61,032 nt of DNA, taken from contig CAWDOY010000035.1 of NCBI GenBank assembly GCA_963803975.1, forward strand, positions 1 to 61,032, in the 5' to 3' direction. The stretch is from an uncultured delta proteobacterium. Lineage in GTDB: Bacteria; Desulfobacterota; WTBG01; CAIYCZ01. A program made the translations under genes and the position numbers. The stretch's first letter is position 1, and the number at the start of each line of letters is the position of its first letter. The notes beneath the pieces are model-generated. The model was not told where the DNA came from and searched no databases. It was given only the letters and a program-made list of their open reading frames with translations. Below, piece by piece: positions 33,515 through 60,601 of the stretch.

Positions 33515-33540
33515 AGTTTCAGGGGTTAGGGGTTCGTGTC

Positions 33541-33698
33541 TATCAGGCTGTTGAGAAACACCCGTCTGCTTCGTTGCGCTCATCCTTCGTCATTGCGACG
33601 TACGGTAAAGTACGACTCATTCCTCTTGATTTCGCGCGCCTTGCATCCGGATGTTTTTGACCAGCCTGGAAGAAAACTGCTTTTTCAACAACCTGATA
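33541..33698. mobile_element. MITE (158 bp) with terminal inverted repeats
   Basis: TATCAGGCTGTTGAGAAA ... TTTTTCAACAACCTGATA; partial second copy at 26814. Confidence 0.8.
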
Positions 33699-33726
33699 GG
33701 GGTTGCAATGGGGAGAGCGAAGCCCG

Positions 33727-43067: not shown

Positions 43068-43146
43068 TGCGTAACTGTAACACTATATCGTTTTCTGAGT
43101 CAAAGGTATTTCAGGGTAAACACTGAGGCAGGCAGTCATTTCTAAT

Positions 43147-43250
43147 AACTTCAATGATGACTTCTTTTTGAATCTGTCACTCACTTATCCTGTGACTAAT
43201 AGCAGTAGTAGCAACCTTTTGTGAATAACCTACTACCCACAATATGTTAT
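43147..43250 (+). repeat. Hairpin repeat copy R0 (3' part, diverged), separated from its terminator by the intron
   Basis: TTCAATGATGACTTCTTTT...ATAGCAG...CCCACAATATG matches the other copies. Confidence 0.6.
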
Positions 43251-43329
43251 CGAGATCGGGTCGAGGCACGGGGATTGCGCCCCGTAACCCTCCCACACCA
43301 CCGGACGTACGATTCCGTATACGGCGGTT

Positions 43330-44060
43330 CGTGAAGTACATTGAAGTTTATGCAGTTCGTCTAACAGGCTCACGAGTCCCCTGTGACCAAAGTATTTCTT
43401 TGGGAACGCCTCGTTCATATGCGCCGCTCCCGAATTCCACTACGCTCCCCGGCCATTGAACGCTGACTTCAGAGCCCTGTCTTTCACTCGTCCTCTTGCC
43501 ATCAGTCTCGCCGCCCGTGTCCTTGCGCGCTTCCCTTGTCTCCACAGCACGCAGCGTAATCTGCGCCGTATCCACCCGTCCAGCTCATCAAAAATCCCTT
43601 TTACCCCTGCTAGCTGAAAGTATTGTACCCATCCTCTCAACACCGGGTTGAGGTCTTTCTTGATAAACCATGCCGGGTTGCGGCCTCTACCCTTGCGAAA
43701 CAGTTCCTTGAGGTTACTCATCAGCCGCTTCACCGATTCGGTTGCTACCTTAAGATGACTCTTCATGTGCAACGTCATTGAGTATCCCAGAAACTTCCTC
43801 CGCCACGGGCGGTCTACCGCACTCTTTGCCCGGCTCACGGTGAGCTTTGATTGCTCCCTCAAAAATCGGGCAAGGGAGATCGATCACTCGTTCTCCCGTG
43901 CGACCACTGCTTCCATTAACTGCATATCCCCCGGATGGGTGTTCCCTCTTCGTGCCGTGGAGCTTGACACTCTTGTCCGGGGCCATCCAGAGTTCCGCTT
44001 TCTTCCTCCCCGGCAGGTCTTGGCCATCTCAGACCGCATTGTCTGCGTCTCCTTCTCCAT
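43330..44060 (-). pseudogene. Group II intron RT/maturase remnant; RT core including YADD deleted, internal TAG
   Basis: MEAVVAREN joins directly to GERV...KLTVSRAKSAVDRPWRRKFLGY; maturase LNPVLRGWVQYF, LDGWIRRRLR; TAG at 43440. Confidence 0.9.
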
Positions 44061-44434
44061 CGAACGCTAAGGCTCCTCTCCGTGCTTCATGTTCAGGCCT
44101 TCGGCTTGGTCGCGCTCGCCTACTCTGCCCTCTGCTGACTTCTCAACGTCCTTTCCATCACCTCGTGGCGACAGTAGCACTCAGGCAGACGTTGAGACCT
44201 CCCCGGGTAATGCGACTCACCTTCACGCGTATGCCTGCCACATATACGTCCATGCTTTCCGTGTAAGTATTGGGCTTTGAAGATATACGCCTTCTCACCC
44301 AGCATGGCCGCCTCGTATGTGATTTCTGTTCGTCAGGCCAGCGCTTTGCCTGCGGCTTCCTTCAGATTCCACCTCACGATGGACACCCTTGCCGTCCGGC
44401 TAACAGTTCCCCTTACCGGGCCTGTAGGAGACTT

Positions 44435-44460
44435 GACTTCGGCTGTGCTCAGTCGAAACC
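44435..44460. repeat. REP-like palindrome inserted in intron domain I
   Basis: GACTTCGGCTGTGCTCAGTCGAAACC; related copy at 60898. Confidence 0.6.
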
Positions 44461-44496
44461 TCACTCCCCAGTGAGTGCGCCCTGCCGGGCGCACGT

Positions 44497-44526
44497 AAAA
44501 AAAGCAGGGCCATTGCTGACCCTGCC
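44497..44526 (-). terminator. Intrinsic terminator; intron target and part of the repeat unit
   Basis: Minus strand GGCAGGGTCA-GCAA-TGGCCCTGC-TTTTTTT; homologous hairpin at 51180..51207. Confidence 0.85.
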
Positions 44527-44681
44527 CTGTAATATTTGGAGTGGCCCCTTTTGTATACTATTAATATCAGGAGATATTCATCTGTGGATCAGTTTGTTAA
44601 TAGAGATGGTTCCTCTTTTGCTACATAAAGGCCGCCTGGTTTGATTTGTTAAACACCCCTAAAGATAGTTTTCGCTGCTAC

Positions 44682-45404
44682 CTATCGAAAATAACCGCCA
44701 CCCTTGCCATGCTGACCAAAACCACCAGCTTTAACTGCACGAAGAAACCCACTAACATTGTTATGACGACCAGAGCCTTTGCCAGAGCGATAATATCCGC
44801 TACCATTGCCATGGCGACCGGAGCCGCCACCGTTACCTGAGCGAAAATAGCTGCCGCCATTGCCACGGTGACCAGAGCTGCCACCCTTGCCTGAGCGAAA
44901 ATAACTGCCGCCATTATTGCCGCGGTATCCGTACCCACCACCACTTCCATGGCGATAATAGTTACCACCATTACCCCGGTATCCATAACCGCCGCCGTTG
45001 CCGTAGTCCCCATAACCCCTGTCATTATAAGAGCGATAATGATCATCGCCACCATAATTAAAAACCAAGCTCACAAGCCCAAAGAGGGACTCACACCCGT
45101 ATCCTCCATATGCACTTGTAGGAGCATAGGCTACCGGAGGAGGAACATATGCCACGGGAGGCTGAGCATAATAAACTGGTGGAGGGGCATAATACACCAC
45201 GGGAGCAGGTGTATAATAAACAACTTGGGGAGCAGCATAAGCGACTGGTGCGGGAGCATAAGCTGTTGCTGGTTGATACTGTGGTTGCATCTGGTAATTT
45301 CCCTGGGGATAAGCAGGAGGTGGAGGCAGAGTATTTCCTGCTCCAAGAGCTGCACCTGTACTGACTAAAACTACTAGGGTTAGAATCAAAACTACCTTTT
45401 TCAT
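44682..45404 (-). CDS. Secreted low-complexity protein (Pro/Tyr/Ala/Val repeats then Gly/Arg/Tyr repeats)
   Basis: Signal peptide; (Y)APPPVYY-type repeats; GNGGSYFRSG-type repeats; GAGGTG RBS. Confidence 0.75.
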   Translation of the reverse strand: MKKVVLILTLVVLVSTGAALGAGNTLPPPPAYPQGNYQMQPQYQPATAYAPAPVAYAAPQVVYYTPAPVVYYAPPPVYYAQPPVAYVPPPVAYAPTSAYGGYGCESLFGLVSLVFNYGGDDHYRSYNDRGYGDYGNGGGYGYRGNGGNYYRHGSGGGYGYRGNNGGSYFRSGKGGSSGHRGNGGSYFRSGNGGGSGRHGNGSGYYRSGKGSGRHNNVSGFLRAVKAGGFGQHGKGGGYFR

Positions 45405-45432
45405 GGTTCACCTCACTGTTAAAATGTTGCAG

Positions 45433-46053
45433 TTATTGTGGGCAGCGTTCTCCGCTGCCTTCTGACTGGGCGGTAAACAGGCTCATGATATGAGAATGAA
45501 TAGCCTCAGTCGTAGAAATCTCTTCATCAGCAGATTTTGACAACTGCTGAATTACTTTTCTCTGGGAAAAATGAAACATGAGGATTGCCGGTAGGGTCAG
45601 TGCGCACAGGTCATAATTGAGCGAAGAACGAAAAGCCCCGGCTTGCGCCCCATCCCTGAAAAATACTGCCATCTGCTCATGGATTTTAGATAAATGTTTT
45701 TCGGTCAAAAGATCGAGAAACCGGCCGTTACCGGCTGTCTCGCGCTGGAATAGCTGAAGCATCTCCGGACTGGTGCGAAAGGATTCATCATAGTAATCAA
45801 TCACCATGCGGAGAATCTGCAAATGGTCGCGGGGGGCAGTGAGAATATCCTGGAGGCGGTTGTAAAACCGTTCCACCTGTGATTCTATCAGGTACAGGTA
45901 GAGGTCTTTCTTATTCTTGAAGTGGTAATAGATCATGGGTTTGGTGAGCTGCGCTGCCTGAGCAATACCATCCATGGAAGCCCCGTCGTAGCCTTTTTGA
46001 GCAAAAACCCTGATTGCTGCCTTTATAATTTTTTCTTTTGAAGTCAGCGTCAT
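45433..46053 (-). CDS. TetR/AcrR family transcriptional regulator
   Basis: IIKAAIRVFAQKGYDGASMDGIAQAAQLTKPMIYYHFKNKKDLY. Confidence 0.95.
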   Translation of the reverse strand: MTLTSKEKIIKAAIRVFAQKGYDGASMDGIAQAAQLTKPMIYYHFKNKKDLYLYLIESQVERFYNRLQDILTAPRDHLQILRMVIDYYDESFRTSPEMLQLFQRETAGNGRFLDLLTEKHLSKIHEQMAVFFRDGAQAGAFRSSLNYDLCALTLPAILMFHFSQRKVIQQLSKSADEEISTTEAIHSHIMSLFTAQSEGSGERCPQ

Positions 46054-46065
46054 ATCTATTCTCCC

Positions 46066-46081
46066 TACTTACTAGTAAGTA
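46066..46081. promoter_or_regulatory. Palindromic TetR-type operator O1
   Basis: Perfect palindrome TACTTACTAGTAAGTA adjoining the RBS of the TetR gene. Confidence 0.75.
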
Positions 46082-46230
46082 TTTAATAAAATTTAAAATA
46101 TTTGTTAAGTCAGATTACATATAAGCAACCCAATGGCTCAGCAAGATAAATATATGTATGTTATTACATTTATTTATATTATTTGTCGGCATATTAATAT
46201 GCTGGTATTATCACTGTTAATATTATTACT

Positions 46231-46272
46231 TACTTACTGGTAAGTAATAATGCATAAAACAAAACTTGTCAA
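46231..46272 (-). promoter_or_regulatory. TetR gene promoter overlapped by operator O2
   Basis: Minus strand TTGACA-17-TATTAC; O2 TACTTACTGGTAAGTA at 46231..46246. Confidence 0.7.
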
Positions 46273-46583
46273 GTGGATTATTTAAAAAACGGTACCTGTA
46301 GGATTTTTTGTAATTGGGCGAGGATAGTCAGTATAGAGCATTTAGTTTTCTGATATCTTATTATTATAATGGATACCTGCTAAGTGTCACCACATCGTGG
46401 CAACATCGGGATGTCAGGATATGGCAATATGCATAGTTGTTATCTGAGTTTGTAATCAAATTCCTCAACTCAGAAATACATTTAGTTTTTGTTCTTTGCA
46501 TCAATAATTAATTTGAATAGGTCTGGGGATATTACTAAAGAGGAATATTTATCAAGATATTGTGTCGCTAATTAACTAATTGT

Positions 46584-46795
46584 GAGTATAGTCTTCGTGC
46601 CAGATATCATGGTGGGCATTATATGCAGAAAACTGCAGCTTATGTATCAGCTGCGAGAAAAGTGAGTCAACCAAAATTCATTGCACACTTCTTTTGTAAA
46701 GCGTCACTGGCAGCTCAAAAAAATCATAGCAGAATGTTGCAATTTTTATGAAGAACCAGTAACCACAATACATAGACACAAAAAAAGCAGGGACA
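46584..46795 (+). repeat. Hairpin repeat copy R1
   Basis: CTTCGTGCCAGAT...TATGTATCAG...GCGAG...AAATTCATTGCACACTTCTTTTG...ATAGCAGAATGTT...AACCACAAT...AAAAAAGCAGGG. Confidence 0.9.
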
Positions 46796-47725
46796 TTAAT
46801 TACCTTGTTTTGCAGATGTGAGGCGGGTGAATGAGTAATCCGGGCCATAGGCTTTTATGTCATATTCGACTGCAATCAGCCGGTTACCCTGCAATTTAAA
46901 CACGATTCGGTCCGGATTAATGTATTCACCGTTTTTCTGCGTCACCAATACTGCCAGGAGTTTTTTCTCCAACGACCAGACGCCGGCCTGCTTTACTGTC
47001 CCCTGAGAGTATCTGGACTGCAGTTCTATGCTGTTGTCACTCAGCACATGCAGGGTCTCTGTGATGGTGCCGCCGGCGCCGGTGAAGCATCGCGTATAGG
47101 TGCCAAGGTACGCCTTTGGATCACCAATAGACGGGGGCAATAACGAATCTTCCTCAGCCCGGACAGCTGGTTGCGTATCTGTCATCTCCACAATAATGTC
47201 AGCATAGTTTGCATATCCATGGGTGATGACAAAGCAAGGTGACCTGTTTATAAAAGCCGGTTGACCATTGCGCAAAACGCGCGCCTGAATTGAATATTGA
47301 TGGGCAGGATTGATCTTGGCCGGATCGTAGGCAAGTTTAAATGAAATTGGCATCTGATTAGTTGGAGTAATTTTATTTTGTGCGATAACAACAGGGGGTG
47401 AGTTCTGTGCAGAGACGTCCAGAAGCTGCACTTCTACTATATCGCTCGGCAGCATCGCGATGCGCTGCCAGTAAGCAACTGTTCCCCTGACACTGGCAGT
47501 CATTCCGGGTGGCTCAGCGTGTTTCTTGTGTGATGGTTTACCCGTCAGCAGGCCCGTGTCTTCCTGCCCTGACTGGTACCTCCATATTTCAAACATCATG
47601 TCAGAACCAGTTTCACCGCCAAAACCTGCATGAGGCAGAAGAAAGCTCATGGCTACCGCAAGGGCTGCCGTACCCAGTAGTGCAGTCTGTCTTTTCCGGT
47701 AAATACTGTTAGAGAAAAACCCCAT
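46796..47725 (-). CDS. YbaY/YscW-domain exported protein with an extra C-terminal domain
   Basis: VRGTVAYWQRIAMLPSDIVEVQLLDVS, QMPISFKLAYDPAKINPAHQYSIQARV. Confidence 0.85.
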   Translation of the reverse strand: MGFFSNSIYRKRQTALLGTAALAVAMSFLLPHAGFGGETGSDMMFEIWRYQSGQEDTGLLTGKPSHKKHAEPPGMTASVRGTVAYWQRIAMLPSDIVEVQLLDVSAQNSPPVVIAQNKITPTNQMPISFKLAYDPAKINPAHQYSIQARVLRNGQPAFINRSPCFVITHGYANYADIIVEMTDTQPAVRAEEDSLLPPSIGDPKAYLGTYTRCFTGAGGTITETLHVLSDNSIELQSRYSQGTVKQAGVWSLEKKLLAVLVTQKNGEYINPDRIVFKLQGNRLIAVEYDIKAYGPDYSFTRLTSAKQGN

Positions 47726-48006
47726 ATTCTCTGCTTATACATTAATACAATTATTTTTTAAACTGCTCCGACCATCAGAAATCTTTGACAGAATATCAGC
47801 ACGATACTATATGGATATTTAAAGCTAAGTCAATGATGTTCTTGATTGCTGATTTTTAAAGAATGGATTTTTTTATGCGCTATATGTGCTCCGTGAAGCT
47901 CTGGCCTATTGAGCCCTCTGAAATGGCTCGGTATATCTTTGGGATTAATAGCAAATGAAAATGCATATAGGCGATGATTCACCATCAAAATAAAGAAAAA
48001 TTGGCC

Positions 48007-48228
48007 GGAACTTGCTTTGGGATGAAGGAAGTATAGGACTGGTGCGATTGTACGTCAATAAGGAATCCGTCGAAAGATATGAGCAGGAATCAACCGGACA
48101 AAAATCAACATCTTGTGGAGAGTTTAAAGAGGAAAAGTGCAGACTTTGTATCAGCAGCGATAGAAGTTTAGCAGCTTAAATTCAATGACTACTTCATCTG
48201 TAAAGAATTAGTGGCGGGTAAAAAAAGC
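48007..48228 (+). repeat. Hairpin repeat copy R2 with promoter-bearing 5' extension; 3' arm truncated
   Basis: Shares about 100 bp of 5' extension with R5; core CAACATCTTGTGG...TGTATCAGCAGCGA...AAATTCA...ACTTC. Confidence 0.85.
48030..48058 (-). promoter_or_regulatory. sigma70 promoter carried by R2
   Basis: Minus strand TTGACG-17-TATACT. Confidence 0.75.
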
Positions 48229-48242
48229 AATGGTATTCATGA

Positions 48243-48434
48243 TTAACATTGAGCAATCTTTTGAAGAATCGTTTCTGCTTCATCATCCCTAACAGCATGC
48301 TTTCTCTTACATTCAGGACATATACCTATATAAGATATGGCATCATTCTTTTTCCCTGCTATCAAAAGACAAAGTAAAATTATTCCCAAAGACGCACCAG
48401 AAACAAGACCTATAATAAAACTAAAAACTATCAT
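48243..48434 (-). CDS. Small membrane protein (DUF3789-like) with CxxC
   Basis: FIIGLVSGASLGIILLCLLIAGK helix; CPEC. Confidence 0.6.
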   Translation of the reverse strand: MIVFSFIIGLVSGASLGIILLCLLIAGKKNDAISYIGICPECKRKHAVRDDEAETILQKIAQC

Positions 48435-48559
48435 TATTTAACTCAAAGATATTAGCCTCTCCTGTTTTAAGTATGACACATACAAACAAGAGGAGCAAAT
48501 CACCAAAAATAAAAGAGCGGTCTATCAAGGGAATGTTGTGCTGCGGGAAGTAAACTTAA

Positions 48560-48764
48560 GAATGTAGACTTCGTGCCAGATGTTGTGGTGGGTATTAGAG
48601 GCGAGAAAGTGAAGCTTATGTATCAACAGCGAGAGTAGTGAGTCAGTCGAAATTCATTGCACATTTCTTTTGCAAACCGTCAATGGCAGGCAAAAAAATC
48701 ACAGCAGAATGTTACTCTTTTTCTGATTAATCATTAACCACAATTCATATCCGCAAAAGGGGAC
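48560..48764 (+). repeat. Hairpin repeat copy R3
   Basis: CTTCGTGCCAGATGTTGTGGTGGGTATTAG ... AACCACAATT. Confidence 0.9.
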
Positions 48765-48776
48765 TTTGCTCGGGCA

Positions 48777-49547
48777 TCAGGCAGGAAATAACAGATCAGA
48801 TATGTGCGCCAGCGTTATATTGGAATTTTTAAGGACGCTAAGGAAAAGTCGTATGGCCCGGGCTGTCTCAGGGAAAGGATGCCCGATGCCGATCGCATGA
48901 CCATATTTATTCGCGTGGTCCGCAAGCTTGTTTAATTGATAAAGAATAGCCAGCTCATTCAGTTCATTATCCAGAAAAATGTTTCTGCAGGCAGCAGGCA
49001 TCTGCAGCTGTTTTGCAATATGATAGCCTTTCGAGTTGGGGGAAGTAAGGCTATCCACAAAGAACAGTCCTTTTTGTTTAATAAGCTCAAGGGTCTCCCG
49101 TATTTCTCGCTGGCAAGCGGTAAACCGTGAGCCCATGTGATTATTAAGACCTATGGCAAACGGAACAGCGGAAAGATTTTCCTCCAGCACGCGGAAAATC
49201 TTATGCAGGCCGTCTCCTACATACAGCGCTCCCGGCCCGGGATTGGCTTCAGAAGCATATGGCTCCATGGGCTGATGGAGCATGATATCGTGGCCCGCGT
49301 CATGCGCTTCAAAAGCAAGCTCTTCTGAGTGAGGATAGAGCGGCAGGATTGAGAAGGTTAGCGGAATATTTAATTCCAGAAACTGCCGTGCTCTATAAAT
49401 ATTCGGGCCTATGTCATCGATGATAAGGGCGATTGCGGGTTTTGCGAAGGAACTGCTGCTGGCAAAGGCTTTTGTGAAGCTGTTGAACCCAAAGAGGTTG
49501 CCCAACAAAAAAGAGACGCTATTATATAAAAACTTTCTTCTATCCAT
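48777..49547 (-). CDS. Divergent polysaccharide deacetylase family protein (YibQ-like), Tat-like signal
   Basis: MDRRKFL; IALIIDDIG, LHQPMEP, NNHMGSRFT, FVDSLT, RNIFLDN, AIGIGHP. Confidence 0.92.
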   Translation of the reverse strand: MDRRKFLYNSVSFLLGNLFGFNSFTKAFASSSSFAKPAIALIIDDIGPNIYRARQFLELNIPLTFSILPLYPHSEELAFEAHDAGHDIMLHQPMEPYASEANPGPGALYVGDGLHKIFRVLEENLSAVPFAIGLNNHMGSRFTACQREIRETLELIKQKGLFFVDSLTSPNSKGYHIAKQLQMPAACRNIFLDNELNELAILYQLNKLADHANKYGHAIGIGHPFPETARAIRLFLSVLKNSNITLAHISDLLFPA

Positions 49548-49728
49548 TCTCTTGTTTGTTTCAAGCCAATGGGGTTAACGGGAAAAAGACAAGTGTAGAT
49601 TAATTGAAGTCCGAAATACAGTATATAGTGGGTCATGTCAAGAATAAATACTATATATGGATAAAACAATGAAATTGGTACATAATTGAGGAGTTTGTAG
49701 CGGTTCAAAAGAAAGTGGACAAATGCAG

Positions 49729-49930
49729 GGACAAAAATCAACATCTTGGGGTAAGCGTCAAAGGTAAGAAAGTGTAGCTTATGTATCAACAGCGAGAGAA
49801 GTTTAGCAGCTTAAATTCATTGATGACTTCTTTATGACTTCTTTTGCAAAGCGTTACTGGTAGTCATGGTAGTCAAATAAAATATAGCAGAATTAGTTAC
49901 TTTTTGTTAATAATCAGCCGCATACAATTC
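49729..49930 (+). repeat. Hairpin repeat copy R4 with two internal tandem duplications
   Basis: Core motifs present; ATGACTTCTTT x2 (49823..49844), TGGTAGTCA x2 (49858..49875). Confidence 0.88.
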
Positions 49931-50030
49931 TGCGGGCGGCGGCCGTTTCTGTACCTCCCACAGACCGACATGCTGCAATATCGCCTTGATTACCTTGGTC
50001 TGGTCTATAACGATTATTGAGCTTTCAAGC

Positions 50031-50861
50031 TTACAGCGAGCCCTCCGGAATCAGTTCGAGCACCTGTTCCCGCCGCTCAGTACTTAGTACCGGCAGAAAG
50101 TACGCCGCAATCACCAGGCCGGCATAATACTCGGAGAGGGTCGCATAGGTTACTTCATTGTCGGCATCAAGCCTGTAAAAGCCCATGTATCGTGATGTCC
50201 CGATAGAGGGCATGAAAAAGCCACCATAAAAGATGATCTGCCGGATTATGGTATCATCGGTTTTGTAGTAAAAAAGATTGCCGTCAGTGCCGGAATTGAC
50301 GTGTTGAAAAACCGTCGGGCCGGCGCTGATCTTCAATCCCCTGATAATAGGTTTCCAGTCGGGCAGCTCTTCCGTGTAGGGCGCCTGGTCATAGGTGGTC
50401 TTCCCTGCGTTCAGCAGTTCTTCAACCGCCACATAGCGGAACATGTCATACATGATCATGTCCATCAGTGTTGCATAGATTTTAAATGAATCCAGGCTCG
50501 CATGCTCAAAGCTGCTGAGATTATCCATCACGCCCGCCAAATCGTCGTGGACGGAAACCGTTACGGTAAAGCCCGGAAAGTCCGGAAAATCATGCCAGCT
50601 GAGCTGGTCTTTCGAGCTCACGGGGCTAGCAATTTCGAAGTCATACATGGTATAGCGGTTGGCGCCGTCTTGCTGCCGATCGTGATTATAAAAAGCCCGG
50701 TAGCCGCTGACCGACTTGGTTGTGCCAATGGCATTGCCGCTGTACGTAACGGTCGTGATCTTAAAGTTCCGGACGCCCTGCGCCAAACAGATGCCGGAAA
50801 CAGCGATCGTTATGCTGATTGCCAGCACAATGAGAATCATCCTGCGAAAGTTCTGCTGCAT
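50031..50861 (-). CDS. Hypothetical exported protein
   Basis: Signal peptide, AAGGAGG RBS, 276-aa open frame. Confidence 0.75.
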   Translation of the reverse strand: MQQNFRRMILIVLAISITIAVSGICLAQGVRNFKITTVTYSGNAIGTTKSVSGYRAFYNHDRQQDGANRYTMYDFEIASPVSSKDQLSWHDFPDFPGFTVTVSVHDDLAGVMDNLSSFEHASLDSFKIYATLMDMIMYDMFRYVAVEELLNAGKTTYDQAPYTEELPDWKPIIRGLKISAGPTVFQHVNSGTDGNLFYYKTDDTIIRQIIFYGGFFMPSIGTSRYMGFYRLDADNEVTYATLSEYYAGLVIAAYFLPVLSTERREQVLELIPEGSL

Positions 50862-50908
50862 GGTATCCTCCTTTATGCGGCTAAGAAATTACAGTTTGAT
50901 ATTTGTTA

Positions 50909-51207
50909 GGAACTCGCTTTCGAATGAAGGAAGTATAGGCTAGTGATGATTGTGTGTCAATAATCCGTTAAAAAATATGGGCAGGGGGTGTCCGGATAAA
51001 AATCAACCTCTTGTGGTGGGTATTAGATGAAGGAAAGTGCAGACTATGTATCAGCAGCGAGAGAAGTGAGTCAACCTAAATTCATTGCACACTTCTTTTG
51101 CAAAGCATCACTGGGCAGCTCAAAAAATCATAGCAGTAAGCGCACATTTTCACTAATAATGGCTCACCACAATATCTAGAAAAAGCAGGACCATCGCTGA
51201 CCATGCC
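50909..51207 (+). repeat. Hairpin repeat copy R5, the most complete unit (promoter, hairpin, terminator)
   Basis: TTGTGGTGGG/CTCACCACAA outer stem, GCGAGAGAAGTG/CACTTCTTTTGC inner stem, terminator at 51180..51207. Confidence 0.92.
50932..50960 (-). promoter_or_regulatory. sigma70 promoter carried by R5
   Basis: Minus strand TTGACA-17-TATACT. Confidence 0.8.
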
Positions 51208-52281: not shown

Positions 52282-52902
52282 ATGAAGGTTAATAATTTAC
52301 GATACGCATTTCCCCGCCTATCCAATATCATTTCCATTTTTATAGTCATACAAGCAGCTCTTGTTTGTATCGTTACTGCTGCATATGCTGGTCAGGTTAC
52401 CTTAGGCTGGGAGCCAAACACAGAACCAGACCTTGCAGGTTATAAAATCTACGATGGTATTTCTTCAGGAAATTATACCCAAATCAAGGATGTCAAAGAC
52501 AAAACCGCTGCCTCGTGCATTATTACTGGCCTGATAGAGGGACAAACCTATTATTTTGCAGCAACTGCGTATAACACCAGTGGTTTGGAGAGCAATTATT
52601 CTGCAGAAGTTTTTTGCACAATTAACCCTGCAACAACCAGTGCATCGACTACCACGACGACAAATCCAAATAATCCCGCGGCAGCTTGTCAGCATAAAGC
52701 AGGAGATCTTGACTCAAACGGTATGGTAACCATTAATGAACAGGTTGCTGTCGTGAGAATGTATCTGGGGCTGGACCCTGTAAATTCATTGTCTGATATA
52801 GATAATGACGGGGTGGTTCAGATCTGGGATGTAATAAAGATAACCAATTGCTACCTGGAGCCAAATGGCGAGTCAAGGAGGAAGATTTGGGGTAGTGATT
52901 AA
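52282..52902 (+). CDS. Secreted fibronectin type III plus dockerin-like protein; C-terminus replaced by the end of the inserted element
   Basis: VTLGWEPNTEPDLAGYKIY...YYFAATAYNTSGLESNYS; GDLDSNGMVTINE...DIDNDGVVQIWDV. Confidence 0.85.
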   Translation: MKVNNLRYAFPRLSNIISIFIVIQAALVCIVTAAYAGQVTLGWEPNTEPDLAGYKIYDGISSGNYTQIKDVKDKTAASCIITGLIEGQTYYFAATAYNTSGLESNYSAEVFCTINPATTSASTTTTTNPNNPAAACQHKAGDLDSNGMVTINEQVAVVRMYLGLDPVNSLSDIDNDGVVQIWDVIKITNCYLEPNGESRRKIWGSD

Positions 52903-53648
52903 GTATTTTCATGATGAATGATCTCCACATACTGTTTTACAAGGTACGTTGAAAGAGCTGTAACCAGATGAATATATTCGATATCAGGATTTTGCTCATA
53001 AACCGTTTTTACTCGGTGGTAGTCATTCAGATAACGATCAACAGCCTTTTGAGAATGACTGGTTTCTCTGGCAACATCGGCAGGGTCCTTTTTTTCAATA
53101 ATCACTTTGCGCAGAATCAGGGCTTTGTGTGATACCCCGGTGCCGATATCGTGCAAAAGGCCGGTATGAGGCAGCTGGCAAGAATGTTCTTTCTCATAGG
53201 CAATTCTCAGAGACGATGCCGTGGATGGATCTCTGAGGGTTAACAGACCGATATCTCTGGTAGAGAGAATGCCACCCTGATCGTAGGCTTCCTTGATTAT
53301 CCGGGCAATGGCAGAGCGAGTGATTACTGACATGGGGATGCCATTGGCCAGCTGATCGATATCCTGGGGTGTAATGATTGACAAGATCACCGGGACATAG
53401 GATCGTTTTTCCGATGTGGCGCGGGTATTTTTATTCAGGGCATTCCAGAGCACTTGGCCGGGTTTAAGCCTGCTTTTCTCGGGGCAGAGGTTTTCAAAGA
53501 TTGCAAGAAGTTGCTCAGAAAGCTTTTCACGCATGACCGGCCCAAAGAACCGGGGAAACTCCCGGGCAAAGAACTGTTCGATGACGGATTTTAGGAACCG
53601 CTGCCGTGCTGAGCTGTATCTGGTATGGCAGAGAGGTTTTTTAATCAT
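52899..53648 (-). CDS. DUF1670-like protein (ORF2)
   Basis: LKPGQ, EAYDQGGILSTRDI, LPHTGLLHDIG.GVSHK, IARETSHS-type HTH; AGGGAGG RBS before ATG 53648. Confidence 0.8.
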   Translation of the reverse strand: MIKKPLCHTRYSSARQRFLKSVIEQFFAREFPRFFGPVMREKLSEQLLAIFENLCPEKSRLKPGQVLWNALNKNTRATSEKRSYVPVILSIITPQDIDQLANGIPMSVITRSAIARIIKEAYDQGGILSTRDIGLLTLRDPSTASSLRIAYEKEHSCQLPHTGLLHDIGTGVSHKALILRKVIIEKKDPADVARETSHSQKAVDRYLNDYHRVKTVYEQNPDIEYIHLVTALSTYLVKQYVEIIHHENT

Positions 53649-53676
53649 GGGTACCTCCCTGATCAGGAATGATGAT

Positions 53677-54465
53677 TCAGTTTTTTTTAAAGAAGGACTC
53701 CAGTTCCTTTTTGCGATGAGCAACAATGGCAGCGCTGTTGTACAGCTGGTAATACTGCTCAGCCAGGCGGACGGAAATCTTAACCAGGAAGCTGATGGTA
53801 TGGATATCGAAGTCCTGCTTTGCCAGGGCGACGATGCGTTTAAATTTACTCACGTAGTTTTGCACGGAGGGTATGCTGTGATGGGTGGTGTGAGCGATTT
53901 GTTCGTATTCTTTCCCCTGAAGCCATTGCTTAATAATCAGTGCGCGGTGGGAAATGGCGCGGCCCATGTCTTTAATGGTTGAGCGAAGCGGTAAGATAAT
54001 GTTTTGGGTTCGTAAAACGCACAGATCTCTGGACAGGGTTCGTTCACCACAGTTGAGCAGTCGGTTGGCAAGGTCTTCCACGGTCAGGAGTCCTCCTTGC
54101 TGGAACGCTTCGTGGGCAAGGCGTTGCATTCTATGGTGCCGCAGGCCGGCAATGCCCTGATGCTGTTTGATTTCCAGGTCTTCATCACCGGCATCCAGGG
54201 TAAGCGCGACGGTTGTTTGTTCACATTCACCCAGCGGGGCATTGGAAGCGGCTTCGGTAGCCACAACTTGGAAGAGCAGTTGTCCGGGTTTAAGGGCCGC
54301 TGAAGTTTCAAAGTAGGAGGCATAGACCTTATATACAGCTTCAAGAATGGCCTGAGCTTCAAACGGAGAGCATTGAAGACCGTTGATGATTGCATTTACG
54401 AACTGTTGATCAAGTTGTTTTTGGGCAAGACGATTCCATTTTTGCAAAGAGGTATTGTTGATCAT
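53677..54465 (-). CDS. DUF1670-like protein (ORF1)
   Basis: LKPGQ, EAFQQGGLLTVEDLA, LPLRSTIKDMGRAISHR, IAHTTHHSIPSVQNY; GGAGG RBS. Confidence 0.8.
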   Translation of the reverse strand: MINNTSLQKWNRLAQKQLDQQFVNAIINGLQCSPFEAQAILEAVYKVYASYFETSAALKPGQLLFQVVATEAASNAPLGECEQTTVALTLDAGDEDLEIKQHQGIAGLRHHRMQRLAHEAFQQGGLLTVEDLANRLLNCGERTLSRDLCVLRTQNIILPLRSTIKDMGRAISHRALIIKQWLQGKEYEQIAHTTHHSIPSVQNYVSKFKRIVALAKQDFDIHTISFLVKISVRLAEQYYQLYNSAAIVAHRKKELESFFKKN

Positions 54466-54718
54466 GATGAACCTCCACAGGAAAAATAAAGCTATGTACC
54501 TGGCAAACTCCAGTCGGGCTACGCCCTCCTTCCGTTTGCCAGATCTATGTGGTAGATTCATCATGATTTTACACCATTTCCCCTAAAAGTATATTGCCTC
54601 TGCCTTGATTAACCAGTGGCTCCTTACAGTGCTGTGGTACTATCCAAAGAATTTACATACAAGAGTATTGCTGCATGTCGGTTCTCAAAGATGCATTTAA
54701 ATAATATTGTAGCTTTCA

Positions 54719-54840
54719 TGCCAATATATTGTGGTGAGCATTTACCGCTGAAATCTGCAGACTATGTATCAAAGTGCTCAATGGCGAACACCTTAAATAT
54801 TTTCACTTACATCTGGTAATATGCAATTGTCTGATACGAT
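54719..54840 (+). repeat. Hairpin repeat copy R6 (5' part, diverged)
   Basis: TGCCAATATATTGTGGTGAGCATT...CTGCAGACTATGTATCA...CTTAAAT...CACTT. Confidence 0.65.
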
Positions 54841-54896
54841 CAAAATCTTATTTTAAAAACTGCCAGTTCAGCTCCATAGTTACAGTTTATTTTTAA

Positions 54897-55580
54897 CTAC
54901 GCGCGCCAGGCACTGCGTTCCCATTGCAGCGCCTGTTCATAATCTTTAAAAAGCTTTTCCCGCTTTTTAAATTCTTTGAAATGGACGCGCTGCCTTCCAT
55001 AGCAGGGTTCAAAAACTCCGGCAGCGTGAAGCATTTCATGATAGACAACGAACTCGACGAAATAGCGGGGTACGTTCCGGTTGTCCAGAACAGGATGTAT
55101 GCGTATGATGTCCCGGTCTCTGTGAAAGCTGCCGAGCCTTCTTTTCCGCACCGCGCGGCGCGGGCTGCGTTTGCCCCAGGTAATAGCCGCGGTTACCGTG
55201 CCGCTGAAGTACTCTTTGTTTAATGCGTTAAATATCTCCAGCAGATCGTAGTGCCTGCCCCTGGTGTTAATGCTGACTGCGCGCGGCTTCCGTGCATCAA
55301 GGCATGCCTGGTTCCGGAGAATGAATTCCCGCACTTTTAAGATGGGCTTCTTTCTTCTTTTGATAAAGATGCATATCTCATCAAGCACATCAGGACCAGC
55401 GTTTAAAAACATCCGGTGGAGCCTGATGGAAATACCTGCTTCCCTTTCCCTGATTGAAAGCATTGAAACCGTGTTGCCGGTAAGGGTGAGTGAGACTGGT
55501 TTAGCGGTTGTTGCCTGAAAATAGTCCTTGAGTGACTGTTCATCAAGGGACGGCAATAGTGGCAGACTTGGCAGGTTCAT
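54897..55580 (-). CDS. SprT/YgjP-like zinc metalloprotease domain protein
   Basis: RLGSF, IRIHPVLD, VPRYFVEFVVYHEMLH, H..EF. Confidence 0.85.
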   Translation of the reverse strand: MNLPSLPLLPSLDEQSLKDYFQATTAKPVSLTLTGNTVSMLSIREREAGISIRLHRMFLNAGPDVLDEICIFIKRRKKPILKVREFILRNQACLDARKPRAVSINTRGRHYDLLEIFNALNKEYFSGTVTAAITWGKRSPRRAVRKRRLGSFHRDRDIIRIHPVLDNRNVPRYFVEFVVYHEMLHAAGVFEPCYGRQRVHFKEFKKREKLFKDYEQALQWERSAWRA

Positions 55581-55732
55581 TGTTGTTGGAACCCTATGGG
55601 GGTCATGCGTTTTTTAATTATTATCTTTAGCCTGCCGCAGTGTTTACACATATCACGTGACCGCGATGGCATTTTTTCGTCTGCGAGACCCTGGCGTCAA
55701 ACCCCGCAACCTTTTCCTACACCCTGTCAATT

Positions 55733-57496
55733 TCAATGAGGCATCCTGTCAACCGGCCGCTCTGCCGTACCGGAGGCATCTGGAAGCGGCATTGCAGCAG
55801 CGGTATTACGAAACCGCCCCGCATCAATCTCCCGCAAAACTGCCTGCGGAGACAGAGCGTACACATACCCGCTCTCTGACAAAAGCTGCTTATTAATGAT
55901 CGATTTGTAACAGGGATAGATTTCTACAATGCTTGTTCCCCAGCCAATATTGACCAGATATATAGTTGACAGTCGTGCCAAATCAGCATGCTCCTTCAAT
56001 GCCCTCAAAGCCGCATTGATGATCCTGGTGCTATCAAATTTCCAGACAAATACCAGGTAACTATCCAATCCCTCCCAGGCAAATTTAAGAAAACCTAATG
56101 CTACATAAGTTTTTTTATTACGGTCTTCATCACTATTAAAAAATGCGAGATAATGATAGGTCTGCAAATTAGTCAGTACAACACTGCGTGGCTCTCTCTT
56201 ATTAACAAGATAGCCCATGATCCGATCATAATCGGCACGCGTTACCGAAAACTCACCCTTGCCGTTATACCTCCGCAAAAAATCACACTGCCTCATCTTG
56301 AACGTTACTGCGCCGACAGACAGCATAACCATGAACACCAGCGCCCAACCAATTCCGGCTCTGGCCCGTTCACTGATGAGTTGCGGGAGGAACCGTTCGG
56401 CTTGTTGCCGCACCGCTTCAAACCCATACTGGACTGAGGCACCCACCAGCAGGCAGACCATGGGAAACAGATATATCGAATGCCGTGATCCGCCGAAGGG
56501 AAACAGTTTGAAGATGGTGAAAACAATAGTAACAGCAAAAGTCAGCACTATCGTCGCAGCAAGCGCCCTCCGTGACGTGTTCCAGAGAGCTATGATCCCC
56601 AGCAGGGATAAAACCGCAGACAGGGTTGCGTAAGGAGGTAAAAAAAGATACCCGATAAAATCCCGTGTATTGTTCATGAACCCTGAGAAAGTCTGCGGGA
56701 AAAGCGGTGCCAGGTATGTTTCTTTTATTGTTCCATATACGCCGCCACCGCCGAGATGGTACGAGATATGAAAAAAGTACAAAATGCAGAATAGAGCAAG
56801 CGGGGGCAGATGCGCCATAATCACGCCGCGATATTCTTTAGACGGTTTTTTCTTTAGAATCAATCGTAGAAGCCAAACGCAGCCGATAGCAGCAAAAAAC
56901 ATAACCGCAGGATAATGCGTTGCTATCGCGAGGAGCATGCAGAGCGAATATCCAAGGAGATATTTTTTTTTCGGGTTTTCCAGGCAGGAGACAAAAAAAT
57001 AGAGGGCACCGGACAGGAACAGCAGCAGCATGCTGTACGGCCGTACTACCTGGGATATCTGGACTGCGCCGTAGCCAAATGCGCACAGGAATGCCATGGT
57101 AATGCCGGATACGGTTCCGCTTACTTTTTTCCCGAGGAGATAAAAGATAAAAATAAGCCCGGCGCCGGGAATAAGGGATATGCATCGCAGCAGCATCTCG
57201 TTCTTGCTGAGCATAATTATCAGATGGAGAACCACGTACATCAGGGGAGCATTGGTCTGACCCTTGATTCCCTCCCACAGGGAACTGAAGCTATTGGCAT
57301 CAGCAACAAAAGAAAGCATCACCTCATCAGGATTAAAAGCATAGTTCCATAACCCCCATATTCGCACGAAGATGCCGGCTGTCCCCACCCACAAAACCAG
57401 GATGAGCACGCGGTAAGCATCCGGAGTTATTGTTCTGTTGTTCTGCATCCTTGCATACCTTGCATAATTGAGCTGTTGTGCGCTTCCCTGCTTCAA
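55733..57496 (-). CDS. Glycosyltransferase family 39 (ArnT/PMT-like) membrane protein
   Basis: RIWGL...NPDE, APLMY, LRCISLI, SQVVRPYS, THY; many TM helices. Confidence 0.8.
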   Translation of the reverse strand: MKQGSAQQLNYARYARMQNNRTITPDAYRVLILVLWVGTAGIFVRIWGLWNYAFNPDEVMLSFVADANSFSSLWEGIKGQTNAPLMYVVLHLIIMLSKNEMLLRCISLIPGAGLIFIFYLLGKKVSGTVSGITMAFLCAFGYGAVQISQVVRPYSMLLLFLSGALYFFVSCLENPKKKYLLGYSLCMLLAIATHYPAVMFFAAIGCVWLLRLILKKKPSKEYRGVIMAHLPPLALFCILYFFHISYHLGGGGVYGTIKETYLAPLFPQTFSGFMNNTRDFIGYLFLPPYATLSAVLSLLGIIALWNTSRRALAATIVLTFAVTIVFTIFKLFPFGGSRHSIYLFPMVCLLVGASVQYGFEAVRQQAERFLPQLISERARAGIGWALVFMVMLSVGAVTFKMRQCDFLRRYNGKGEFSVTRADYDRIMGYLVNKREPRSVVLTNLQTYHYLAFFNSDEDRNKKTYVALGFLKFAWEGLDSYLVFVWKFDSTRIINAALRALKEHADLARLSTIYLVNIGWGTSIVEIYPCYKSIINKQLLSESGYVYALSPQAVLREIDAGRFRNTAAAMPLPDASGTAERPVDRMPH

Positions 57497-57616
57497 GAAG
57501 CGCGGGGAATGTCCCGCGAAAATTTACTCTGTGTTAAAAATGATTTCCGGAGAAGGTTCAATTGCTTTTCGTCATGGCCCTTCCGGGAACCCGGCAGTCG
57601 GGGTATTGCGCACAGC

Positions 57617-57653
57617 AAAAGGGGCCGGTCCTTATGAAGCAGAAACCGGCCCC
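57617..57653 (-). terminator. Intrinsic terminator
   Basis: GGGGCCGGT/ACCGGCCCC stem with TTTT on the minus strand. Confidence 0.65.
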
Positions 57654-57684
57654 GGTATTGTATGATTATCGTAAGCGTACCGTG

Positions 57685-58580
57685 TTATTTTTCTTTCATA
57701 TCTATCTCTACGGTCCAGAACCCGTCTATCCAGTATTTTTTTAATTTGTCCTTGAATATCTTCTTCCCCATGTTCACCGCAAAGTCCTTGTCATAGAGCG
57801 CCTGGACAAAAGCCCGGGTCTTTTCTTCATGCCGCTTTGCATAGCCGGGATCAGTCTGGAGCCGGTACAGGCTCTTCATATACGCCGCCAGCGATAATTT
57901 AAATGCTTCCCCCACTGTTTCATAATACTGCTTCCGCACAGCTTCATCCTCAGTTACCGGCTCCTGCAGCTCCATGCGGTACTTGCTCTATAGGGGTCCA
58001 GATAGGCAGTGATCTTGCCCCTGCCCTGCTCGACCGTGCGCTGGTATTTTTCAACCAGTCCCATCGCCCTTTTCACGCCATTCTGCTCCTGGCCAAAGAA
58101 GGCCTCAAGATTGATGTTCTCCGGGTCCACGTCAAAAAAGTCCATGCTGCAGAGACCGGGCAGTCCCGGCGACGGCTTCATAAAATCAATGTGTATAATG
58201 GGCGCCTTGAATTCGAAGCGCGGCCGCAGGTTAAAGGTAAAATCCCGGCAGTAGCCTGACTTCGGGGGGACTTCAAACTGGCTTATGGTGGCTGCTGTTA
58301 TGCGGTCGCTCTCATAAGACGCCAGCGGGATGCCCAGGTATTTACCGCCAAAAAGCTTGCTGTAGGGAAACGCCAGCTCCAAGGAAAAATCTTTAAACTC
58401 CCCGGTTATGGGACGCTCAGTCGTCTTATACTCCTGCATCAGGGAAATGGTGAAGCTGCGCAGGTTTGCGTACACGCCGAAGTCTGAATACTTCTTTGGC
58501 TGATAGGTTGCGATAAATATCCCCGCTACAACAATAATAAGTAATAGAATGATACCAACAACTTTGAAAAACTTTTTCAT
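57685..58580 (-). CDS. Membrane-anchored protein resembling the ferredoxin-dependent bilin reductase/RCCR fold; frameshift near 57985
   Basis: N-terminal TM helix; RPRFEFKAPIIHIDF, LCSMDF, C-terminal YDKDFAVNMGKKIF...GFW. Confidence 0.5.
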
Positions 58581-58785
58581 AATTCCTCCCCTGGTTTTTT
58601 AACATTATTCCAACTGGAGCAACTATAGAAAAAAAAGCGTCAGATGTCAAGCTTATCAAAGGGCTGAGGGAGCATTATCAAGCATCTTCTTTGTATCGCA
58701 TATGTCACCGTATTTGCGAATCGAAGCCTGAAGGATAGCGGGCAGTGTTTTTTCTCTATCCGCCCGCGCATAACAGGCGCGGATG

Positions 58786-59400
58786 CTAAAACCCGCTCCA
58801 TGTTACCATCTTCACCCCGAGCTCAAAAGCTGTCTTTAAATCTTCTGCTTTCCCCGCGACATCCTGCTTCTGCAGGTTCCCCATGCTGATGACATCGCCC
58901 ACCAGTTTCAGCCGGAAGTCCCGCAAATTCCGCTCCAGGACCATGTGCACCAGCGGGGACGAGAAAAACGGGTCGCCCTGGCTTATGACCATGGCCGCCT
59001 TTTTGTCTTGGATTTTTGACACGCCGGTTGCTCCGATCATGTTCCCCTTATCATCATATTCTATCTCGTAGCGCAACAGCGGCAGCATCCGGGCCAGGAA
59101 GTTGAGAATCGGCGCGGTCACCGTGCGCATGTGGTTGGGCGTGCCGAAAATAAAGGCATCGCTTTCCCTGATCTTCTCAATCAGCACATCCATATCATCG
59201 CGCAGCACGCATTTGCCGGTGCCCGGCGGCGGGAAGGTGCAGGTCAGGCAGCCGCTGCAGTACTGTATGTTCCGGTCAGCTATAAACACCTTTTCAATCT
59301 CTGTGTTGCCCCTGCTCCTGCAGCCTTCAATGACCCGGTCAACGAGCAGCTCGGTGTTGCCGCCCCTGCGCGGGCTGCCGATGATGGCCATGACTTTCAT
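58786..59400 (-). CDS. Iron-sulfur flavoprotein / NADPH-dependent FMN reductase family
   Basis: GSPRRGGNT, CSGCLTC...C, DDM, IFGTP. Confidence 0.9.
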   Translation of the reverse strand: MKVMAIIGSPRRGGNTELLVDRVIEGCRSRGNTEIEKVFIADRNIQYCSGCLTCTFPPPGTGKCVLRDDMDVLIEKIRESDAFIFGTPNHMRTVTAPILNFLARMLPLLRYEIEYDDKGNMIGATGVSKIQDKKAAMVISQGDPFFSSPLVHMVLERNLRDFRLKLVGDVISMGNLQKQDVAGKAEDLKTAFELGVKMVTWSGF

Positions 59401-59597
59401 ATGTAGACCTCCCTCTAAAGTTACCTGTGCAGTTAATTTTTATGCACAGAGCCTTTATACACTATAATAAGGCATCCGCGCAATAATAACTGACGGTTAA
59501 AAATTGGGGGGTAACCGCAGCTTCTAATTAAAAAGCCATCACCATTCGAACCCTATCTCTCCCAAACCTGGCTTTTCAAAGTTATTAATTGCAAAAA

Positions 59598-60378: not shown

Positions 60379-60388
60379 TCATAAAATC

Positions 60389-60601
60389 TCACGCATACAT
60401 GAGCTTTGAACCTTTGGGCTCCGGGATAGGGTCGTTAAACTCTGTGGCAGTATCAAGCCATAGTTGAATGGCCTTTTTGGCATTTCTTAACGCTTCATCA
60501 TAGGTCTTACCATGTGCAGCACACCCTGGCAGCTCGGGAACCTCTGCAATATAAATTTTATCTTTTTTATCCCAGTAAATTACTATTTCATATTTATACA
60601 T
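60389..60601 (-). CDS. hicB: HicB family antitoxin
   Basis: YIAEVPELPGCAAHGKTYDEAL...DPIPEP. Confidence 0.93.
   Translation of the reverse strand: MYKYEIVIYWDKKDKIYIAEVPELPGCAAHGKTYDEALRNAKKAIQLWLDTATEFNDPIPEPKGSKLMYA

Follow-up and report, generated by a model that had tools for sequence, protein, structure and literature searches.

What arranges the unrelated genes that stand between copies of a repeat in the window (the whole stretch of DNA analysed, 61,032 nucleotides)? The textbook case of a platform on which genes are captured and reordered as cassettes is the integron, and the first-pass annotation had proposed an integron-analogous array with a new site type and its recombinase encoded elsewhere. 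We favour, with some reserve, the reading that the window holds an orphan array: the gene-cassette system behind it would be other than an integron and would probably act on double-stranded DNA, with the ~175-bp repeat as its recombination site. Shuffled flanks, a site that is not attC and a candidate recombinase speak for the earlier proposal, whereas a hairpin site did not hold and one fixed breakpoint held only in part. The genome under study (G000) is represented by a 98% complete assembly.

Layout of the array

The array comprises seven sites, R0 to R6, spanning 43.1–54.9 kb (Table 1). The repeats reported by the first-pass annotation (R1 to R5 and the partial copy R0) are all present, but the array is longer: R6, missed earlier, closes the island. 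As had been noted, no integrase lies in the window, and the genes between the repeats are unrelated, encoding a TetR regulator, a YscW/YbaY protein, a divergent polysaccharide deacetylase, a 63-aa membrane peptide and two exported proteins without a Pfam match. The genes from 44682 to 50861 are all on the minus strand, although the last module has a plus-strand gene. Gene stops had been placed within ~15 nt of a repeat edge; those at 46796 and 48777 are about 25-30 nt from the terminal box, and that at 48243 is ~18 nt from the truncated end of R2. For the remaining two modules the distance to a site is 110-190 nt, with an IS91-family transposase relic or a terminator in between.

Two insertions are recognisable from alleles that lack them. 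The DUF1670 gene pair of module 6 is a 1725-bp insert (52860-54584), with the joint 52859>54585 in runs X1, X2 and X19. For the group IIC-like intron, which has lost most of its protein gene and keeps the maturase domain alone, the intron-less joint 43230>44498 occurs in runs X1 and X2. The first-pass annotation had mentioned that some IIC introns target attC sites; this one is inserted directly after the T-run of a terminator hairpin and therefore is no sign of attC.

Table 1. Features of the array, with positions in the window
Feature	Positions	Strand	Details
R0, island-opening site	43131..43247	+	degenerate left arm; centre 43164-43170; right arm U' ends in terminal box
Group IIC-like intron	43255..44494	-	Rfam RF02001 and RF01998; GIIM
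Terminator hairpin	44496..44526	-	belongs to the terminator family adjoining the right arm of sites
Module 1, Gly/Pro-rich exported protein and TetR regulator	44682..46053	-	
R1, full U/U' site	46553..46773	+	site proper 46600-46773, centre 46691-46697; preceded by duplicated left-arm stub
Module 2, YscW/YbaY-domain protein	46796..47725	-	PF09619, E 6e-26
IS91-family 3' end (oriIS-like) with sigma70-type promoter, fused to R2 left box	48010..48105	-	
R2, U arm and centre, right arm truncated	48106..48225	+	centre 48195-48201
Module 3, 63-aa membrane peptide	48243..48434	-	weak DUF3789 match
R3, full U/U' site	48576..48748	+	centre 48667-48673
Module 4, divergent polysaccharide deacetylase	48777..49547	-	PF04748
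R4, full U/U' site	49739..49926	+	11-bp duplication at centre
IS91-family (Y2) transposase C-terminus relic, joined to R4 right box	49910..50017	-	tblastn E 7e-7, 75% identity
Module 5, exported protein	50031..50861	-	
IS91-family 3' end with promoter into module 5	50903..51003	-	-35 at 50960-50955, -10 at 50937-50932
R5, full U/U' site and terminator	51004..51207	+	site 51004-51177, centre 51095-51101; terminator 51181-51207
Module 6, fibronectin-III gene split by DUF1670 gene pair	52282..54700	+	gene 3' end approximate
R6, island-closing U/V site	54722..54885	+	centre 54809-54815; V arm 54816-54885

A conserved, two-armed site

Each site is ~175 bp long and consists of two inverted arms that meet at a centre. 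Terminal inverted repeats are present as inverted 13-bp boxes and inverted arm motifs. The left end is sharp in 161/179 copies, and mean column identity is 73%, with longer conserved blocks. The arm motif lies 42 bp from the centre in 36/40 copies here and 41-42 bp in 19/21 copies of a sister family. Genome-wide, G000 has 54 matches by the whole-site model and about 69 loci by arm models. These are clustered: 55 of the 69 loci have a neighbour within 5 kb, compared with 10 on average, and at most 23, when loci were placed at random 1000 times. Adjacent sites are mostly co-oriented (28 pairs on the same strand, 6 on opposite strands).

There are two classes of left arm (U, V') and two of right arm (U', V), seen in the combinations U/U', U/V and V'/U', plus one V'-like/V candidate. 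A typical island opens with a site without U, continues with U/U' sites and often ends with U/V. This polarity is marked and resembles an attL…attP…attR order: of the 16 sites without U, 13 stand at the head of their cluster (P=0.00035), and of the 8 V sites, 7 stand at its end. Complete single-gene islands (V'/U'-gene-U/V) are present in two relatives, G001 and G002.

The site type is not attC. No RYYYAAC / GTTRRRY cores were found at the seven window sites (0 of 7), and RNAalifold on 40 copies gave a consensus of 0 pairs. The claim that the non-coding strand folds better is true of R5 (RNA z -3.2 vs -0.6) but not of the family as a whole, where it is the better-folding strand in 25/43 copies (mean z -1.05 vs -0.78). 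That strand count and the lack of consensus pairs rule against the bottom-strand hairpin site that the first reading implied, and an attC or other hairpin site was rejected on these grounds together with the absent cores.

Canonical CALINs, in which attC clusters lack an IntI, and Xer/pdif modules served by the host's XerC and XerD are, in our view, hardly credible explanations of the arrays. In their favour, the layout is cassette-like, and no intact tyrosine recombinase other than XerC and XerD was found in G000. However, attC sites have little sequence conservation and require a folded bottom strand (PMC4792948), the opposite of these sequence-conserved sites without attC cores or a consensus fold. 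The centre is also unlike the dif candidate on contig C3, and no dif-pattern match (XerC/XerD arms around a 6-bp spacer) was listed at the window sites.

It is very improbable that the repeat serves as a regulatory DNA element or a structured RNA, for example as a paired NrdR-box operator, copied before many genes. Its terminal boxes resemble the NrdR box consensus, nrdR is present, and promoters usually follow the left box. However, the ribonucleotide reductase gene in the window has no such box, on which ground the NrdR operator was rejected. Furthermore, the neighbouring genes are functionally unrelated and of mixed orientation (15/45 left neighbours on the other strand), and besides the missing consensus fold the sites have no Rfam match, the intron being the only one in the window.

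Two further origins were considered. A coding origin of the site core was rejected, with stops or indels in every frame when read by eye. In viral contigs, two U patterns gave 0 matches; a single V match lay inside a phage structural gene and was dismissed as chance.

Mobile elements beside the sites

Modules often carry their own promoter and their own terminator, and the terminator hairpin family adjoins the right arm in 22/56 full-length copies. The left box is adjoined by an IS91-like 3' end in 40/153 copies; the sequence of this kind fused to R2 is also found 3' of Y2 transposase genes at three loci (L046, L047, L056). Transposase relics lie next to the right arm at R4, C44 and L082. Both associations would fit arrays built by one-ended rolling-circle transposition of IS91/ISCR-like elements, with the repeats as ori ends. 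We hold this to be most improbable, since 113/153 left flanks are of other types and the site core is absent from 16/16 Y2-transposase loci of relatives. Moreover, the same gene as module 5 and its transposase relic are accompanied in G018 by an ordinary IS91 end, with no site. A search of G000 and G001 yielded no intact Y2 transposase, though it left the control genomes likewise without a match. The IS91 ori end was therefore rejected as the repeat itself; it is a frequent neighbour of the site.

Gene turnover at the sites

The proposal that genes are gained, lost or reordered at the sites is borne out by relatives, where gene content and order differ and breakpoints lie inside sites. Of 16 pairs sharing a flank, none had both flanks in common. 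Synteny blocks between G000 and G001 stop at site arms. The module 1 pair has paralogues on contig C42 and in G001, and the module 5 protein is 96% identical in G001 and 93% in G018, which belongs to another family, in differing contexts. A module 4 paralogue on C3 adjoins another site and shares the left flank of module 4.

The 11.8-kb island is not present in G001. With no V arm left and ~70 bp of spmA missing as well, the junction there does not qualify as a clean empty site. The G001 loci compared yielded no clean filled/empty pair, in a fragmented assembly that limits island comparisons at C14, C1 and C25; flank exchange inside the element was seen instead. Circle junctions were not seen in four runs, searched as contigs only, at 9-18% of sampled words and with short-sided between-repeat joints.

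A fixed breakpoint had been expected, and here the outcome is divided: switches of arm class fall at the central dyad, but exchange points between same-class copies are spread (12 pairs, from -92 to +103 around the centre). The class switch lies inside the 7-nt centre both in an orthologous pair (G000 C26:6784 vs L167:1273) and in a paralogous one (C45:108654 vs C40:51109). U and V' have only ~10 bp in common, at the join, and the centre sequence varies between copies. The inner segment of most V'/U' sites differs from that of U/U' sites; thus, V'/U' sites are not simple reciprocal products. At C45:106654 in G000, a sister-type U arm is joined to an inner segment of the genome's own lineage. 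When whole sites of the two lineages were aligned, 29/300 shuffles scored as well.

These exchanges could also arise with no dedicated mechanism, if the sites were MITE-like miniature relics of the recombinase element, spread in the past as whole units, and were now shuffled by ordinary RecA-dependent exchange and gene conversion. The spread of same-class exchange points agrees with this, as do the inverted terminal boxes, the sharp left end, the column identity with longer conserved blocks, and the lack of a recombinase in six site-bearing genomes (see below). We consider it unlikely, though deserving of weight, since it leaves unexplained the cluster polarity, the co-orientation and the class switches at a centre with so little shared sequence. 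Besides, a true MITE family in G000 is unlike the sites, with 87-96% identity and simple presence/absence.

Candidate recombinase

The claim that the recombinase is encoded elsewhere gains a candidate, nested in a homologous site of the sister family, although it was not found in this genome. The candidate is a 278-aa Xer-like tyrosine recombinase at the site centre in three sister-family loci, its gene lying between U and U' (one copy in G013, two in G014). The unit has a 9-bp repeat at both ends, exact in G013 and matching at 7/9 in G014. Alignment with an IntI-like protein showed the catalytic residues to be present and the IntI insertion absent, and against the integron-integrase model TIGR02249 it scores 50-56 bits (cut-off 265 bits). 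No arm-binding domain is among its listed domains. The family comprises 4503 clusters, and identity to the tandem integrases in G018 and G002 is 24-28%. The gene contains a conserved run of nine A's; read-through would need a frameshift.

The family was not found in six site-bearing genomes (G000, G001, G002, G017, G018 and G020). Given the completeness of G000, "encoded elsewhere" means outside this assembly. The recombinase was also beside none of 84 metagenome matches picked by this lineage's motif. In other genera, its downstream region shares a long exact stretch with the U' arm in 2/24 cases, and in G199 the U' arm is single-copy. G014 has two further genes between U and U', one for another small recombinase and one IS110-like; the 278-aa gene might thus be a passenger with the site as its target.

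Other enzymes were searched for as well. No IntI was found in G000 and no serine recombinases in five genomes. A scan of site neighbours, covering 271 of the 272 cluster representatives of 385 ORFs (one with undetermined residues was dropped), matched a P4-type integrase beside a tRNA (L149), two DDE transposases and one integrase-repeat fragment, none recurring. The best candidate for a decayed cognate recombinase in G000, at C1:159277, was rejected (tblastn E 0.19, family-HMM E about 10), as was a recombinase promoter relic at C1:166110, where 34/300 shuffles scored as well.

Proposed mechanism and significance

In the cassette system that we favour, the 278-aa recombinase family would bind the arms as double-stranded DNA, with the crossover at the centre. 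Two direct sites recombining in this way would release [U'-cargo-U] circles, which could integrate at other sites and so build arrays. The recombinase gene itself may be such an insertable unit, either lost here or provided only for a time. Similar copies probably also exchange by a RecA-type route, which would contribute to the shuffling. This reading draws on the clustering and polarity of the sites, the class switches at the centre, the reassorted flanks, the complete single-gene islands, the arm-to-centre spacing of the two lineages, the sister-type U arm in G000 and the nested recombinase with its catalytic residues. Against it stand the spread of same-class exchange points, the lack of circle junctions in the contigs searched, the recombinase missing from six site-bearing genomes and from beside the 84 metagenome matches, the differing inner segments of V'/U' sites, the G001 junction, the whole-site alignment, the scarcity of U' stretches downstream of recombinases in other genera and the possible passenger role of the 278-aa gene. 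The link to the enzyme is indirect.

More tentatively, we suggest as a realistic possibility a third independent cassette system beside integrons and pdif modules, with 278-aa recombinases acting on long two-armed double-stranded sites. The recombinase gene would then be a cassette in its own right, inserted at the centre of the site. It would stay in a lineage only for a time and leave behind dozens of orphan arrays, this one among them, which it could still shuffle in trans. No description of such a system was found in the literature searched.

If true, a Xer-like enzyme with apparently unstructured double-stranded sites would represent convergent evolution of integron logic and would assign a role to a large recombinase family that lacks annotation. 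Much of the turnover of accessory genes in these anaerobes would also be explained, including genes 93% identical across families. A recombinase that is compact, has a single subunit and accepts a variable centre could be of practical use, and with sites, centre and candidate enzyme all defined, the system is directly testable.

Comparison with known systems

Dif-type sites are short XerC/XerD sites of ~28 bp. As in the pdif/dif modules of Acinetobacter plasmids, accessory modules here lie between recombination sites with no adjacent dedicated recombinase (PMC6449649, PMC7399989). Unlike those, the present sites are ~175 bp long, chromosomal and directly repeated, and differ from the genome's dif candidate.

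Lambda-type attP x attB integration yields hybrid left and right ends, in which two kinds of arm meet at a short overlap in the middle, flanked by inverted half-sites. The sites here are likewise hybrids joined at a central overlap, with polar left and right ends. However, an arm-binding domain would not fit into the 278-aa enzyme and none is listed for it, the centre is variable, and dozens of sites form arrays of cargo that contain no phage genes.

Tyrosine-recombinase transposons such as RIT elements, and the IntDes subgroup, have in common with the present case a simple tyrosine recombinase that moves as a small unit in Deltaproteobacteria-like genomes (PMC8138268). RIT elements differ in having a trio of genes rather than one, and the identity to tandem integrases is low, as given above. 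IntDes has an arm-binding domain and altered catalytic residues and occurs in Desulfovibrio only (PMC8138268), unlike the 278-aa enzyme, which has no arm-binding domain listed and has its catalytic residues.

From integrons and CALINs the array differs in its site, which has arm classes and a conserved ~175-bp sequence instead of attC cores, a consensus hairpin or a family-wide strand bias. It also differs in modules that often bring their own promoter and terminator, and in a candidate recombinase that lacks the IntI insertion, scores far below the integrase cut-off and lies inside the site. Shared with them are co-oriented arrays in which a repeated site stands between unrelated, variable genes, a likely enzyme of the tyrosine recombinase type, the persistence of arrays when that enzyme is missing, and sites that draw other mobile elements (PMC8618304, PMC4792948).

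The array and its distribution

At the locus level, the repeat array claimed by the first-pass annotation is a real feature. Its sites R0 to R5 are present, but the array was not complete, since a closing seventh site, R6, had been overlooked. Likewise, the description of the cargo as unrelated minus-strand genes holds between R0 and R5, but the module before R6 –a module being the gene or genes between two neighbouring sites– contains a plus-strand fibronectin-III gene split by a DUF1670 pair.

The repeats are not a local feature: this genome (G000) gave 54 matches with a whole-site model and 69 loci with arm models. Another locus lay ≤5 kb away for 55 of the 69 (mean of 10 and maximum of 23 in 1000 random placements), and adjacent site pairs were co-oriented in 28 cases vs. 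6 that were not. Judged from sequence, the window holds an orphan array of an apparently undescribed, putative cassette system; a literature search outside subscription journals found no published description of it.

Other elements lie in the same window. The tandem DUF1670 pair is single-copy in G000, has a short subterminal inverted motif and is precisely absent in three runs (contig sets used for allele joints). An Atlas search with it returned only DUF1670/HTH clusters, and it behaves like an insertion sequence, without a known transposase domain. A separate high-copy repeat of 160 bp is a typical MITE: the copies listed number about 40 per genome for G000 and its congener G001 (87-96% identity), and G001 lacks the repeat at two orthologous positions. 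A SprT-like gene is duplicated together with its neighbours.

Coordinates of the features in the window and in related loci
Feature	Sequence	Position	Remark
R0-R5 array	window	from ~43131	
R6	window	54722-54885	closing site of array
Group IIC-like intron	window	43255-44494	
DUF1670 gene pair	window	52860-54584	inside fibronectin-III gene
160-bp repeat	window	33540-33700	related arm 26813-26856
Ribonucleotide reductase gene	window	28867-31005	PF02867
SprT-like gene and neighbours	window	54897-60392	duplicated at G000 C54:187000-191606
Left flanks of types D and E, examples	G000	C14:43425, C26:10818	
Recombinase-gene 5' ends with nine-A run	L348, L350, L385-L387, L395, L399		
Mobile genes between or beside arms	L349, L354, L356	L349:8176-9110; L354:11353-12986; L356:11125-12286	

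Site anatomy and polarity

Each site is bounded by inverted 13-bp boxes. Both arms have an inner motif, and short inverted half-sites flank a centre of 5-7 variable bases. With separate models, the left arms fell into the classes U and V' and the right arms into U' and V; V' is similar to the reverse complement of V. The 245 distinct sites from G000, G001 and metagenome loci comprised 60 U-U', 21 U-V and 11 V'-U' sites, and 153 with a single recognised arm; C40:51109 is a candidate V'-like-V site.

Within G000, a U-less site opens 13 of the 21 multi-site clusters, 13 of 16 U-less sites stand first in their cluster (within-cluster shuffle, P=0.00035), and V sites stand last in seven of eight cases. 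This cluster polarity is an attL ... attP ... attR pattern, and we take the sites to be like those of lambda att. U and V' have only ~10 bases in common, located at the join, and the class switches in the centre: the orthologues G000 C26:6784 and L167:1273 match up to it and differ beyond, and the paralogues C45:108654 and C40:51109 likewise agree up to the centre and diverge after it.

An outward promoter is usual in the left flanks, 40 of 153 of which are an IS91-family end, and one terminator family occurs on the right side of 22/56 full copies. Two recurrent leader modules were also seen on the left: type D (promoter, short ORF and terminator; 10/153 copies) and type E (promoter with an attenuator-like leader; 4/153). 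The end boxes resemble NrdR boxes, and a resemblance to IS3 ends was also noted. NrdR-like boxes form the ends of cassette sites, yet none precedes the only PF02867 ribonucleotide reductase gene of the genome, though nrdR is present.

A nested recombinase in the sister family

A search using the V arm pointed to g11, a genus of the sister family in which a diverged U arm stands before V. Of 42 genomes of the class, nine had the g11-type U motif, among them all five from g11 (up to 25 copies); its reversed control gave 0 matches. G000's own motif had no match in 400 other genomes of the phylum, a sample without G001, G002 and G018. Plain whole-site alignment of the two site types was no better than shuffles (29/300 as good). 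We link them because they have a common V arm, the same distance between arm motif and centre (42 bp for 36/40 in this lineage; 41-42 bp for 19/21 in the sister family) and a hybrid in G000 itself, where a g11-type U arm is fused to this lineage's inner segment.

Between U and U', the sister-family genomes G014 (twice) and G013 (once) carry the gene of a 278-aa Xer-like tyrosine recombinase. It starts at the centre, a second centre follows it, and a 9-bp repeat lies at either end of the unit. The family comprises 4503 clusters, its homologues have source names pointing to Deltaproteobacteria/Desulfobacterota, and a search of 250 other genomes of the phylum found it in 18. The catalytic residues are kept, the IntI insertion is absent, and scores fall under every NCBIfam cut-off. 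According to PMC8138268, IntDes belongs to a different tyrosine-recombinase subgroup.

Outside g11, the tie of this recombinase to the arms is thin: a long exact stretch is common with U' in 2 of 24 downstream regions, the U'-like arm of G199 is single-copy, and genomes of family f4 have different flanks (1-4 copies). In copies from G014, G030, G036 and G040, the start codon is out of frame owing to a run of nine A at the recombinase 5' end, an arrangement that suggests programmed frameshifting; for G013, the matching short frame was seen. Further mobile genes lie next to the arms or in the space between them –a frameshifted second small tyrosine recombinase, tandem integrases and a transposase that we take to be IS110-like from its motif– and make the site a hot spot for mobile elements.

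In G000, the tyrosine recombinases found were limited to XerC, XerD and a fragment next to a tRNA; no serine recombinase or intact Y2 transposase was found there. The 278-aa family was not found in G000, G001, G018 (from another family) or the other site-bearing genomes G002, G017 and G020.

Shuffling between relatives and the proposed mechanism

Among 17 right-flank clusters with at least two members, the left flanks were different in 10, the same in two and mixed in one; two had double matches on one site and two were not judgeable. With stricter criteria (160 sites), nine pairs had a common right flank, seven a common left flank and none both. Synteny blocks between G000 and G001 stop at arms, and identical anchors hold different cargo. 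Module 5 recurs in other contexts in G001 (96% identity) and G018 (93%). The 11.8-kb island is missing from G001. As the junction there has no V arm and ~70 bp of spmA are absent too, a loss cannot be distinguished from a gain. Moreover, chromosomal flanks are combined differently through arrays in G001 C108 and C438 vs. G000 C26, C29 and C43, which suggests larger rearrangements between sites.

The proposed comparison between strains revealed reassorted flanks and class switches at the centre, but no single position for all exchanges: the 12 exchange points that could be assessed in pairs of copies spread from -92 to +103 about the centre. This spread is evidence against a purely fixed crossover, and therefore homologous exchange or conversion is probably active in addition. 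The main rival explains the sites as MITE-like relics shuffled by RecA alone; we consider it rather unlikely. On balance, we lean towards an enzyme-driven, double-stranded cassette mechanism with orphan arrays in G000. The recombinase would cross over at the centre of double-stranded sites and in this way excise and insert modules of U', cargo and U; its own gene would be one insertable unit, and homologous exchange would keep the orphan arrays of G000 mixing.

Comparison with known systems

The group IIC-like intron is no pointer to attC: it sits immediately after a terminator, and insertion there is the ordinary habit of group IIC introns. Most of its protein gene is lost, and intron-less alleles exist in two runs. 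The better folding claimed for the non-coding strand applies to R5, but as a family trait it fails (that strand is better in just 25/43 full copies). RNAalifold gave no consensus pair in 40 copies, an Rfam search of the repeats returned nothing except the group II intron, and RYYYAAC and GTTRRRY cores are absent from all seven window sites.

The comparison with integrons draws on PMC8618304 and PMC4792948; according to the latter, attC sites are not conserved in sequence, and only their folded strand is recognised. The cassette site is the opposite, with 73% column identity and conserved blocks at fixed spacing. The system is neither a pdif, an IS91 nor a RIT element; it lacks every integron-specific trait tested, but it would work in an integron-like way.
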